64,000 bases of DNA from Lachnospiraceae bacterium (GCA_045595325.1 JAZOAG010000021.1:4656-68655); one strand, 5' to 3'; positions 21,001 through 27,000 are shown, counted from the stretch's first letter. Made by a program: the numbers.

Positions 21001-24000
21001 CAGAAGAGAAGAGTGAGGCGGAGGAAGAAAGCGGTACGCAGGAAAGTACTTCCGAGGAACACAGCGAGACAGGGGAAGATGAGGATAAGGACGAGGCAAA
21101 CCGGAAAGCATTGGAGTTGTTTCGGGAACTGATTCTGGAATCCCGCGGAGATGAATTGACACAAGAGGAGAACGATTTATTTGTTGCGGGTGCAGTACGG
21201 ATTGAAAACAGCCCCTTTCTCGGGGAATGGAATCGTACAGAAGTCAGGCTGGGAAACGCAGGAAACCTTATCATTACGGAGAATGCGGATCAAAGCGTTA
21301 TGGCAAGCGGTGATTTTTTTGCGTACGGAAATTCCGGATATATCGGGGAAGCACCGTGTTTGTTCCTGAATGATGTCAGCTTAGTTATTCTTGATGAAGA
21401 AGGAAGTGCCACCTATCTGCTTCAATTGAATGCAGACGGAATGCAGGTGTCACAGTACGGTTTCGGCTGTATGGGGGCAGGTGCATTCGGATACGGCAAG
21501 TTTGTTAAGGGAGCGCCTGTGTATACGGATGCCTTTGAGATTCAGGAGACTTTCACTGCGGAAGAACTTGCGGCAGTAGAAGCGCTTATGCAGGTAAACG
21601 GTCTGGATTATGAAGAGTATTTTATTAATGCAATCAGTGGCTCCTACGGACCTATTATAACACCGATGCCGGCGGATTTAGAAAACGGAAGCCATGTGGA
21701 TGGAAGGCTGATAGAGGCATATGCGCCTCATGGATTAACGAGAAATCTGGTAATGTACATTGACAATAACGGAGATATTTATATGACATCATCGTTTAAT
21801 TTCTCTGATGCCCCCGAGTATTACACCACCAATTCAAGTCAGACGTATATGCCTGCGGGTGAATAAGATAAGTTCCTGTTTTTCAACAAGAAAGGAAGAG
21901 AGATATGTTGACATTTACCTGTACAAATTGCGGAGCGGAATTGTCAGTAAGCCGAATTGGTGCACTGTCCTGTCCGCATTGCGACTCCAAGAAGTTTTTC
22001 ACGGACGAACAATTGAAAGAATATAAGGAATTCCGTCTTAAAATGCTGGAGTATTTAAGCGCTGAGGCCCAAAGCGAAGAAGCAACGGAAGGTAGCAGAC
22101 AGTTATGGAACAGTGCGGAGCAAACCGTATTTAAGTCCATGGACGGAGATGATATTACCGTGGAATATATTTACAAGGGCAGCGATGGCGCGGCTTCCGT
22201 TTACGTAGCCCGAAAAAGTGTGATTTACTTTTTCCCTGCCGGTCATACGCAGGACGCACAGCAGATGCTCTCTCTGATAAATAAGGTTACATATCCCCAG
22301 GCGGATATGAGAGGATTAGAACGCAGTTTCCCTGCTCTTAGCGGGCGTTTTACGTTAAGAGACGGGGGGATGCTGCTGGTATTCTCCAAACCGGAGAACG
22401 CTTATCCGGCAATTCTTTTCGGGGACCTTTCCGCGAAACATGTGGAGTGGATTATTTCCCGTATGGAAAATATTGCATGTGTTCTTGCTTACAGTAATCT
22501 CGAACACGGCGGGATGAATGCAGAAACGCTTTTTATTAATCCCTGGACCCATGAAGCCATTCTTTACGGCGGATGGGCTAAGGCAAAGACCATTGCCGGG
22601 ACAACGACTACGGATTTGGTGAAAATCCGCGAATGCGGCAGACAATTGCTCGGAGACGGTTTTCAGGCTGCTCCCGCGCCGCTGATTCGCTTTTTGAAGA
22701 GTTCCCCTAAGAGCAATGCATATGATGATTTTGCAGTTTGGGATGATGTCATTGAAACGCAGCTTGGCGGAAGACATTTTACAAAGTTTGAAGGTTAGTA
22801 TTCTTAAAAGATAAGGAGATAAAAGAATGGGAAGAGGAAGTTATACCAGTGCAGATTGGAGTAAATTAAAGAACAGTTCTAAAATAACAGAAACCTCCAC
22901 AACCTCTCAGATTTTTAAGGCAGAAAAGATGGAAGAACGTTTCGACCCGCGTTTCGTGAATGCCCGTGAAGCGAGAGATTCGGAGGAACATCCCGATTCA
23001 ACGCCCATTATTATCGGATTGGATGTAACGGGCTCCATGGGATATCTTTCCACGGAGATTGCAAAGAACGGATTGAATGAAACCATGATGAAGATTTATG
23101 CCACCAATCCCGTAAAGGATCCCCAGATGCTTTTTGCAGCAGTCGGAGATGTAAGTGATTATGCGCCGCTTCAGGTGACGCAGTTTGAATCGGATATCCG
23201 TATTGCGGAGCAGCTGCTTGCACTTTGGTTAGAGGGAAACGGAGCGGATTCACCGGAGGATTATGAACTTCTGTGGTATTTTGCGGCGAAACATACAAAG
23301 ATTGATTCCTTTGAAAAGAGGGGAAAGAAGGGATACCTTTTCACCATCGGAGACGCAGATTGTCATCCGAATTTAAGCGCAGGAGCCATTAAAAGAATAT
23401 TTGATGATGACACGCACGGATTCACATCGGAAAAACTGGCAAGTATGGCAGGCGAGAAATATGAGGTATTTCATATTCATATTCAGTCTTCTATGGATAA
23501 GCCGCCCAGAAAAATGGCAGAGATTCTTCCGGGACGAATTCTTTGTATTTCCAAACAGGCAGTTTCTCACTTGCCTGAGATTATTATCAGTGTAATGGAA
23601 CTGGTAAACGGTAAGGATATGGAGGAAGTGATTTCGCAGTGGCCTTCCCTAAGTCAGCCGGTGGTTAAGTATGCCGTGAAAGATATTGTGTTAAAACAGC
23701 CGAAGAAAGGATTTTTCTTTTGAAAAAACCATATTTTAGTGCGGTAATCGGTCGGGGCTTCGGGGATGAAGGAAAGGGAATGATGGTGGATTATCTGGCA
23801 TCCCAATCCGAACATTCTCTTGTGATTCGTCACAATGGCGGTGTACAGTCGGGACATACGGTAGAGATTCCGGGAAATCGTTTTGTTTTTCACGGACTTG
23901 GGTCCGGAACTTATCGGGGCGCTCATACTTTTTGGGCAGATACTTTTTTCCCGGATTTGTACAAATTCGGGGAAGAGGTGGAAGCTTTTCAGAAGGAGGC

Positions 24001-27000
24001 CGGTTTCAGACCTTGTATCTACGCGGATGTGAACACACCGGTTACCATTATTGATGATGTATTGCTTAATATGGCGGCAGAATTAAGCCGTAAAGACAAA
24101 CGTCACGGCAGCTGTGGAATGGGCATCTATGAGGCGCAGTGCAGAACCATGGCAGGATATGACATCCGGCTGGGGGAATTTAGGACATTGACGCAGGATT
24201 CCCTGACAGACCGGCTGGGTCTGATTCGCAGGGACTATGTACCGGGACGGATGAAGGAACTTGGAATATGGCCCGATGCCTGTGACAGATGGGAAGAATT
24301 ACCAAAGACCCTGCAAAGAGAGGGAAGGTGGTCTGATTCCCTGGGTGAGTATCTGGAAATGTTACAGAATGATACAGTGCTTCGAAATGCGACGGAACAG
24401 ATGCTGGCAAACTTTAAGTATGTTTGCCCGGTGGAAAATGTTGCAGCTTTTATTACCGGATATGAGAATGTTATTTTTGAAAACGGACAGGGACTGCTCC
24501 TGGATTCGGAGAATTCCTTTTACAGTCCCCATGTGACGGCATCCAGGACCGGACTTACCAATCCGTGCAAAATATTGCAGCGAATGGGAGAGAAGCTGGA
24601 CGCGGTGTTCTATGTGACCCGAAGTTACGTAACCAGGCACGGTGCCGGCTATCTGCCCGGTGAATGTACGGCTGCGGAATTAGGAATTCGGGAAGAAGAT
24701 TCCACTAACACATACAATCCCTGGCAGGAATTTTTAAGATATGCAAGACATGAGTCGGTGGAGAAGCTGCTTATGCCGATAAAGGAGGACATTAAGAATC
24801 TGAAAGAATCAGGGATGTCGGGAGCAGAGGTAAATATTCTTGTTACACACTTAAATGAAACGGATGGATGTGTAGTGACAGAAGAAGGGGATGTGCCTGA
24901 GGTATTGTTTACAGAGTCTGTTCTGGTGAATGGGAGTATTCACCGGGTGGGCGTGAGTGAAACACGCTACAGCCGGGAGATAAGATGGACAGACAGCAGA
25001 GGGAAGGATTTGACAGAGTAGAGAATAATGCGCAGGTTTTTGAAAGAGGAGATTTGAATAAATGAAAAAGAAAGTTGTTGTGTTGGGAGGCGGAACGGGC
25101 TCTTCCACACTGTTAAGAGGATTGAAAGAGTTTCCCTTAGATATTACCGCCATAGTTTCTGTCTGTGATGACGGAAACAGTACGGGTGTACTGCGGGAGG
25201 AATTCAGTATTCCTGCCGTTGGAGATATTCGCCGGGTACTGGTGGCGTTGTCGGAAACGGAGCCACTGGTAATGGATTTGTTTAATTACCGGTTTCATAC
25301 TACCAGTGATTTGGATGGGCATACGGTGGGAAATCTTTTGCTGACGGCCTCGTCCGAAATAACCGGAAATCTATCTGACGGAATTGAAGCTTTGAGCAAA
25401 GTTTTTAACCTGAAGGGGAAAGTGGTTCCTTTGACGGAGGATAACGTGGTTCTCATGGGAGAGATGTCGGATGCAGAGATCATCGAAGGAGAACATAATA
25501 TTACGAAATACCGGAAGGGAATTAAAAATGTATTTTATAAGGAGAAGCCTGTGCCTACCAAAGCTGCGGTGAACGCAATCCGGGAGGCGGATTTGATTCT
25601 TTTAAGCATGGGAAGTCTTTTTACCAGTATTATTCCCAACCTGATTTGTGATGAGATTGTGGAAGCCATGGATGAGAGCAAAGGCAAGATTATGTATGTC
25701 TGCAATATGGTGACCCAGCCGGGAGAAACGGAGAATTTCACCGTTTCTGACCATGTAAAACTTCTGAACCGCTATTTGGGGAAACGTAAGGTAGATGTAG
25801 TGGTGGCAAACACCGGTGAAATTGATGCCCAAATGGCCAAAAGGTATGAATCCTTAGAACAAAAGGATCCCGTGATACTTGACAGGGACGAAACGGAAGC
25901 ATTGACAGAAACTTTGATTTGTGATGATTATGTGACGGTCCGCAACAATTTACTGCGTCATAATGTCCTGAAACTGGGAATGCATATTTTTGGATATCTT
26001 TTGGCAGGCAGTGATATGGAGTAACCGGAGCATTTTTTTGCAAATAGCTAAAAAACAATAATATATCCCTATTTTTGTGAGAGAATATCCCTTGTTTTTG
26101 AGGGATATTTCTTTTATGTTATAAAAGGAAAGTGCAAAGGGGATGCAATAGTAATCGTGAATCCTTTGCGATAATATATTTAATGGAGAAAAACAATGAA
26201 AAAATGGATTCGACTGGCTGCCATAGGAATGGCAGTGTCCGTCTTAACCGGATGCGGTGGAGCAGCGGATACGGAACTGGAAACAATCACGTTGGATACT
26301 TATGAACGCACTACATATGAAACAGCAGAGGTAATGCAGGGCGATTTGATTCCGATGGTATCTCTTCAGCTGACACCTTCAGCAAAGGAAAGCGTGACAT
26401 ACCAGCCTTTGAAGGACAACATGGAAGTAAAACAGGTATATGTGAAAAACGGTGATTATGTCCAAAAAGGTGATGTCATGGTTACTTTCAAATCAGAGGA
26501 AGTAGATGAGAAAATCAAGCAGTATAACGAGGAAGTTGATATGATGGTTATGCTGGTGGAACATTACGAGAAACTGATGGAAGTAAACGATGAACTGGAT
26601 TATAAGGATGATATCGAACAGCTTAAGAAGGATATAGACATTAAGCGCATGTATATTTCCGAAGAGAATGCGAAATTAAGCAGTTACAGCATCAAGGCGG
26701 AACGAAGCGGAGTGGTTTCTTCCGTATCAGACCTTTTGTATTACGGAACCGTTGGTTTAGGGGATAAAGTTGTTACGGTGATATACAATGAAGGGGATTA
26801 TTATGATGCTACTACGGATGACTATCCGTTTCAGGTCGGCGATATCTATGAGGCCAAAGCTTCTCTGGGGACATTTGAAGTGGAGCTGACCTCCATCGAG
26901 GATGGAAATACGTCAAGAACCCTTCATTTCCGGCCGTTGGATATGCGTAATACTGCTAATATCAATCTTTTGGAATTGAATATTATCAAAGATGTTAAGA

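Follow-up and report, generated by a model that had tools for sequence, protein, structure and literature searches.

What does a protein with the fold of adenylosuccinate synthetase (PurA) do once the residues that hold aspartate have been replaced? The question is raised by a locus in a 64,000-nucleotide stretch of DNA from Lachnospiraceae bacterium GCA_045595325.1 (JAZOAG010000021.1:4656-68655; hereafter the window), a one-strand, GC-skewed stretch of a Lachnospiraceae-type metagenome-assembled genome. Three consecutive genes form a cassette here, referred to as K (kinase-like), V (vWA) and A (PurA-like). In public records A is annotated as 'adenylosuccinate synthetase', while PHROG phrog_1211 and phage records carry the name '2-aminooxy adenylosuccinate synthetase'. 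Both names are almost certainly wrong. A represents a third branch of the PurA superfamily, so far uncharacterised and housed in an undescribed cassette; the full-text literature on PurA-like, vWA, defence and phage proteins yielded no published account of this branch or of its vWA cassette, only genome announcements.

The relationship of A to PurA (EC 6.3.4.4; PF00709; structures 1ADE, 1GIM and 1CG1) is most evident in the fold. The protein passes the Pfam model PF00709 at 111 bits, with the match covering profile positions 1-278 of 416 only. It does not pass the NCBIfam purA equivalogs (47-89 bits against cut-offs of 368-700 for TIGR00184, NF002223 and others), nor the PurZ model NF038379 (36 bits, where the cut-off is 300), a score on which identity with PurZ is rejected. 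An AlphaFold2 (AF2) model made with 80 homologues as input has a mean predicted local distance difference test score (pLDDT) of 91 and a predicted TM-score (pTM) of 0.92. When this model was compared with the PDB using Foldseek, the 43 significant or top matches were all PurA, PurZ or DgsS; the alignments ran over the full length, with a TM-score of 0.66 at about 18% identity. The model thus predicts a full-length PurA fold for A. Confidence is lowered in three segments, at about residues 41-50, 121-140 and 321-340, which we take to be the counterparts of the mobile loops of PurA that become ordered only upon ligand binding.

The active site was mapped onto E. coli PurA, the sequence of which is 100% identical to PDB 1kjx_A, by family-profile alignment to 1ade and by global hhalign, with the DSSP secondary structure of the AF2 model and intermediate sequences as aids. 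In the profile alignment D13, K16, H41, T42, Q224 and T239 of PurA are all retained in A, as D16, K19, H46, T47, Q257 and T273 respectively. This bears out the initial annotation, a reading of the sequence alone, which had stated that the phosphoryl-transfer residues are kept: the equivalents D16, K19, H46 and Q257 are both present and strongly selected. The motifs it had read by eye (GDEGKG, GHT, Gln224, HGSCGMGI, THLN and the Ser of STGP) are likewise judged correct.

The aspartate site is a different matter. In E. coli PurA, mutagenesis has assigned roles at the L-aspartate site to R131, V273, T300, T301 and R303. In A, the loop IGTTGRGI reads HGSCGMGI, which puts S131 and C132 at the positions of T128 and T129, and M134 at that of R131, while the profile alignment places H307 at V273. 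Global hhalign sets NPWQ(G/E)xLR (residues 333-340) on GATTGRRR (residues 298-305) with the loop length unchanged; the TT pair becomes WQ (T300 = W335, T301 = Q336) and both R303 and R304 are lost, the former position being F338 in A and Ser in most relatives, and the latter Leu. On this mapping all the L-aspartate-binding determinants examined (R131, V273, T300, T301, R303 and R304) have been replaced, and the proposal that the aspartate-binding loop had been exchanged stands. The accompanying remark that no Arg equivalent is left is right for R303, but the invariant R340 sits on R305. Because the L-aspartate site is gone, it is very unlikely that A makes adenylosuccinate.

The site for the acceptor has changed as well. 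The 5'-phosphate of inosine monophosphate (IMP) is bound in PurA by N38, T129 and T239, together with R143 from the other subunit. In the profile alignment these positions are occupied in A by Q43, C132 and T273, and an invariant arginine, R142, precedes the R143 position by four residues; Q34 and N38 are exchanged as a pair, becoming N39 and Q43. Part of the IMP 5'-phosphate clamp, where N38 is now Q and T129 is now C, therefore seems to have changed. The earlier suggestion of an IMP-like acceptor is not assured, since invariant Q, C and H have taken the places of N38, T129 and V273. As an observation on canonical enzymes, the PurA of a same-genus genome (L005:324-1613) has YGSTKQGI for IGTTGRGI and GAKTGRPRR for GATTGRRRR, so that the 'hallmark' positions T128 and G130-R131 vary among bona fide PurAs.

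Conservation was followed in a close set of 189 distinct relatives of A and a distant set of 135 representatives with 29-49% identity. The whole family, from a full hidden Markov model (HMM) scan of 1.84 billion representatives at E<=1e-30, comprises 3191 clusters at 50% identity. H129, S131, C132, M134, E138, R142, Q257, H307, D327, T329, N330, N333, W335, Q336, R340 and T376 are present in 189/189 of the close set, in which the retained catalytic residues are all constant as well. At least 95% conservation extends across the distant set for D16, K19, N39, Q43, H46, H129, S131, C132, E138, R142, Q257, T273, R301, T305, H307, T329, N330, N333, Q336 and R340, with W, F or Y at position 335. At position 337, 177 of the close relatives have G, while 11 have E, the residue of the present copy. 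Since close and distant relatives alike keep the replacement residues invariant, the active site of A is, as far as the alignments can tell, re-specified under purifying selection and not decayed.

The motif that reads the base in PurA, TKLD, reads THLN in A, and S413 matches S414 of STGP. MAFFT and hhalign were both off by about 6 residues in this region. The equivalence of T376-H377-L378-N379 with T330-K331-L332-D333 is nevertheless judged the more likely placement, because the AF2 strand at 370-376 runs into THLN and because phage intermediates read VVTHLD and VVTCVD. At position 379, the equivalent of Asp333, 167 sequences of the close set have N, 18 have D and 4 have S; in the distant set 69 have D and 62 have N, a ratio of about 1:1 family-wide; the homologues from mycobacteriophages and Rhizobium phages have D. 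Position 377 is H in 99 and C in 34 of the distant set, giving a consensus of T-[H/C]-x-[D/N] over the family. The D333N-like change is on this placement a subclade feature, and the family-level change is that of K331 to H or C. The initial annotation had supposed that A uses another nucleoside triphosphate (NTP); the THLN of the present copy speaks for it, but the inference is weak, and because N is found only in a subclade no family-wide claim on NTP choice can be drawn from it.

A is also independent of purine synthesis. In the 96%-complete assembly (G000) A is the only match to PF00709, and purB is absent too. Within the genus, canonical purA and purB either occur as a pair or are both missing, the latter in G000, G001, G002, G007 and G010. 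Genomes G003-G006, G008 and G017 have the PurA-like paralogue A in addition to a canonical PurA (E about 1e-165), whereas G000 and G002 have A without purA and purB. Since A is kept in genomes without purB, its product would not pass through adenylosuccinate lyase. The joint loss of purA and purB suggests a purine-salvage-dependent subclade, which the annotation of A as PurA would hide; correct naming would mend metabolic reconstructions that credit such genomes, the present one included, with the synthesis of adenosine monophosphate (AMP).

In place of purine genes, A has two constant companions. An alignment of V was used to scan 185,579 species genomes, and V was found in at least 587 species, nearly all of them gut or rumen Clostridia. 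In the best 80 loci, which were examined, the gene order is K-V-A in 61 and K-V-V-A in 11, the rest being cut by contig ends; K lies directly 5' of V in 74 of the 80, and V and A overlap by 1-4 nucleotides (nt) or nearly abut in most of them. In the present locus A starts with TTG, about 10 nt downstream of the Shine-Dalgarno sequence AAAGGA, and the tetranucleotide TTGA at 23720-23723 (+) joins the TGA stop of V to this start with a 4-nt overlap, an arrangement through which V and A may be translationally coupled. In a metatranscriptome from one gut run, unstranded contigs span the V/A junction, as well as those of K with a lipoprotein-like gene upstream and of A with a yvcK gene downstream, which points to transcription of the cassette in vivo. 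All-against-all clustering of the flanks of the 80 bacterial loci found no fourth conserved cassette gene, the second V being the only recurrent addition. This second copy, seen for example at L006:5178-6065 and L008:4956-5843 and also in L080, L085 and L094, has about 15% pairwise identity to the first and is still matched by the V HMM.

The cassette has a viral distribution too. The V-A pair, usually with K, is present in 480 viral contigs of IMG/VR; 80 of these were examined, and V lies next to A in 77 of them. It is also present in phages of Vibrio (about 190 kb), in Rhizobium Kleczkowskaviridae, in about 200 cluster-C mycobacteriophages and in one human-gut phage. The vWA and kinase-like partners named in the initial annotation are therefore real, and gene linkage supports both V and K as obligate partners of A.

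V is predicted from its model to be a MIDAS-type vWA protein that binds metal. The AF2 model (pLDDT 87) has integrin beta-I and vWF-A domains as its top Foldseek matches, with a probability of 1.00, and V matches phrog_2971 (E 5e-36), whereas Pfam returned no model for it, vWA models at E<0.01 included. The MIDAS-like motif DVTGS is invariant in 56 V sequences, as are M1, G2, G4, Y6, D10, W11 and L14. Of 173 homologues, bacterial and viral, essentially all begin with MG, following the pattern MGxGx[YWF]xxxx[WY], and the N-terminal tail is modelled as flexible (pLDDT 59).

K is probably a pseudokinase. Its kinase part has no Pfam match. The K family profile aligns with gp106 of Mycobacterium phage Tonenili (hhalign probability 92%, E 6e-7), and gp106 passes Pfam Pkinase at 35.6 bits. 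In the alignment the catalytic motifs of K read HGG for HRD and GGW for DFG, with a non-conserved residue at the catalytic-loop Asn position. The phage protein (L014:3853-4926) is less degenerate than Clostridial K, reading HGA for HRD but keeping the catalytic-loop Asn and the D at the DFG position. At its N-terminus, where Clostridial K has a Zn ribbon, gp106 carries a J-domain-like region, recognised by an HPD motif and a below-threshold match to Pfam DnaJ (19.5 bits against a cut-off of 27.8).

How might these parts work together? The explanation to which we give roughly even chances is that A is the PurA-fold subunit of an NTP-dependent ligase that phosphorylates a carbonyl group and employs a nucleophile other than free aspartate, in complex with V and outside AMP synthesis. 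The self-contained K/V/A cassette would have A as its catalytic subunit, an Mg-NTP-dependent ligase. By analogy with PurA, a nucleoside triphosphate would be bound in the P-loop, and its gamma-phosphate would be transferred to the oxygen of a lactam-type carbonyl on an acceptor resembling a purine nucleotide, with Asp16 as base and His46 as acid, together with Lys19 and Gln257. A nucleophile other than free L-aspartate would then displace the phosphate. The pocket for this nucleophile would be lined by the invariant residues H129, C132, M134, H307 and D327-x-T-N-x-x-N-x-W-Q-G-x-x-R340. A and the MIDAS-vWA protein V would work together as a stoichiometric complex, K probably being a scaffold or regulator. 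An N6-substituted purine nucleotide, the product put forward in the initial annotation, is a reasonable chemical extrapolation from PurA.

Several points weigh against this ligase reading. With N38, T129 and V273 changed to Q, C and H in the acceptor site, a 6-oxopurine mononucleotide is not assured as the acceptor. The geometry of the pocket and the match of THLN to TKLD are predictions from sequence, secondary structure and intermediates. A physical interaction between V and A is suggested by gene linkage only, and the metatranscriptome contigs, being unstranded, may include DNA carry-over. Ligase activity in the A family is so far a prediction.

The same obligate partnership with a vWA protein can be read in another way. 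vWA proteins classically pair with NTPases, and A might have lost its ligase activity and become an NTPase switch or chaperone, hydrolysing GTP or ATP on behalf of V in the manner of the MoxR-vWA remodelling or metallating pairs; the lost aspartate site and altered IMP phosphate site would fit such a change. The equivalents of Asp13 and Gln224, which are directed at the acceptor, are nonetheless invariant in about 320 sequences, and the replaced loops are invariant and not relaxed. This constancy, of the new loops as well as of the residues directed at the acceptor, disfavours a pure NTPase, which we regard as improbable.

Viral neighbours might point instead to a role in nucleotide pools during phage-host conflict, in NAD or ADP-ribose metabolism or in RNA repair, such as the re-amination of inosine nucleotides or the handling of a metabolite related to NAD or RNA ends. 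Many large lytic phages carry the cassette; in Rhizobium phage TM30, NAMPT-like and NMNAT-like genes lie upstream of it, and genes of RNA-repair type (Ro60/TROVE, RNA ligase, Thg1, RlaP and PNK-like) adjoin it in several viral lineages. The bacterial loci give no such signal. Their 125 immediate Clostridial neighbours are a housekeeping mix without NAD, RNA-repair or defence enrichment and with no NAD-salvage family among the recurrent ones, PADLOC-DB 2.0 returned no match for K, V or A, no upstream k-mer is shared by the Clostridial cassette loci, and no Rfam element was found at 12 cassette loci. Such a role, which concerns physiology and is compatible with the chemistry of the proposed ligase, is thought equally improbable. 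The PADLOC result and the lack of defence enrichment in the flanking proteins also speak against a known defence system.

A more specific proposal is that A joins C6 of a 6-oxopurine to a protein, either to the N-terminal Gly of V exposed by removal of Met or to a protein held by the MIDAS, leaving an N6-linked nucleotide tag. The near-universal MG start of V, followed by conserved aromatic and acidic positions, the flexible tail on which it sits, and an invariant aromatic-Gln pair in the new loop of A that could hold a peptide are all consistent with it. This support is circumstantial, as the N-terminus of V may serve folding, docking or regulation, and we consider the proposal slightly less probable still. 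If true, it would be a reaction type new for the PurA fold and a new N6-linked nucleotide modification in gut Clostridia and large phages.

An ordinary or drifted adenylosuccinate synthetase is very improbable. A is the sole PF00709 match of its assembly and bears the public name, but the six aspartate-site residues are all replaced, the equivalog scores are 5-8 fold under cut-off, relatives hold a canonical PurA in addition and purB is missing along with purA; on these grounds a housekeeping PurA is rejected. A PurZ/PurZ0-type enzyme for 2-aminoadenine (Z) DNA, to which the phrog_1211 and phage names and the PurZ structures among the fold matches might point, is scarcely credible given the NF038379 score, the absence of the aspartate site that PurZ uses, and a bacterial chromosomal gene with neither datZ nor mazZ among its neighbours.

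Set beside known systems, the proposed ligase subunit A shares with PurA the full-length fold, the GDEGKG motif and the equivalents of Asp13, Lys16, His41, Thr42, Gln224 and Thr239. It departs from PurA in the change of R131, V273, T300, T301, R303 and R304 to M, H, W, Q, S/x and L, in N38 to Q, T129 to C, K331 to H and, in the subclade, D333 to N, in having obligate vWA and pseudokinase linkage in place of purine-gene linkage, and in persisting without PurB. PurZ, PurZ0 and DgsS (EC 6.3.4.25; 7ODX, 7VF6 and 6FKO) offer a precedent for a re-specified fold, as they too form a phage-borne branch of the PurA fold, and one in which acceptor and NTP specificity have changed. In PurZ, which has PurB, DatZ and MazZ as its partners, the aspartate site is retained, whereas A lacks this site and has other partners. 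Among vWA systems, MoxR-vWA pairs are represented by RavA-ViaA, CbbQ-CbbO and NorQ-NorD, and the TerY-P triad combines a vWA protein with a Ser/Thr kinase and a PP2C. The cassette resembles these in placing a MIDAS-type vWA gene beside genes for a kinase-fold protein and for an enzyme that uses NTP through a P-loop, with which the vWA protein presumably works, but its NTP-using enzyme has a PurA fold and is not an AAA+ ATPase, its kinase is without catalytic residues, there is no phosphatase, and its vWA protein has no Pfam vWA match.

To our knowledge, the PurA fold has so far been associated with two chemistries, those of PurA, which leads to AMP, and PurZ. The latter was reportedly found only in 2021, and is said to have explained Z-genome DNA. 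The identity of the product of A would, in turn, define a new nucleotide or protein modification common to gut bacteria and large phages. The features of the cassette are listed in Table 1.

Table 1. Genes of the K/V/A cassette and active-site elements of A, in window positions
Feature	Position (strand)	Remarks
K, Zn-ribbon (CxxC...CxxC) + kinase-like protein, 297 aa	21905..22798 (+)	
V, vWA/MIDAS protein, 298 aa	22827..23723 (+)	N-terminus MGxGSYxxxDWxxL
A, PurA-like enzyme, 433 aa	23720..25021 (+)	last gene of the K/V/A cassette
A, P-loop GDEGKG, residues 15-20	23762..23779 (+)	D16 = Asp13, K19 = Lys16; 187/187 aligned relatives
A, HNGGVQSGHT, residues 38-47	23831..23860 (+)	H46 = His41; N39/Q43 for Q34/N38
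A, RHGSCGMGI, residues 128-136	24101..24127 (+)	replaces IMP/Asp loop AIGTTGRGI
A, FENGQGLLLD, residues 253-262	24476..24505 (+)	Q257 = Gln224
A, TRHGAG, residues 305-310	24632..24649 (+)	H307 for Val273; H307 in 189/189 and 135/135
A, DSTNTYNPWQEFLR, residues 327-340	24698..24739 (+)	putative re-specified loop replacing aspartate loop ...GNEFGATTGRRR (hhalign)
A, THLNET, residues 376-381	24845..24862 (+)	probably stands for base-specificity motif TKLD
A, S413	24956..24958 (+)	= Ser414 of STGP; S in 180/189 close relatives

Some further observations concern the neighbours of the cassette in other genomes. In a close relative (L002:4147-6258), a xanthine/uracil permease gene and a uracil phosphoribosyltransferase (UPRTase) gene lie downstream. 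Recurrent among the 125 Clostridial neighbours are Xan_ur_permease (3), a phosphopentomutase-type Metalloenzyme (3) and Ham1/ITPase (2); these counts are too few, and possibly too much a matter of synteny, for a purine-salvage link to be called. In one phage group (L118:8225-9301 and 11 related IMG/VR contigs), a SPASM-domain protein of radical-SAM type is encoded 3' of the cassette, while other viral contigs, listed with L165:9346-10869 and L141:16-1005, have Ro60/TROVE-vWA, DUF2828/DUF7788, RNA ligase, Thg1 and RlaP near it.

In the window itself, a YvcK/CofD-related gene (25062-26024; TIGR01826, 325 bits) begins 40 nt after A. Its place beside the cassette is a local feature that is not conserved in other loci. 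Apart from weak internal matches, the DNA from K to the end of yvcK shows no hairpin of terminator type, and a strong terminator follows yvcK at 26083-26110, so that in the present locus yvcK seems to be co-transcribed with the cassette. On the other side, a lipoprotein-like open reading frame (ORF; 20868-21866), with a signal peptide and Cys followed by an acidic low-complexity linker, ends 38 nt before K; it is not kept beside the cassette in other loci. Further upstream lies a truncated Thiamine_BP (YkoF-like) ORF at 20404-20709, within 20217-20729, with an intrinsic terminator-like hairpin upstream.

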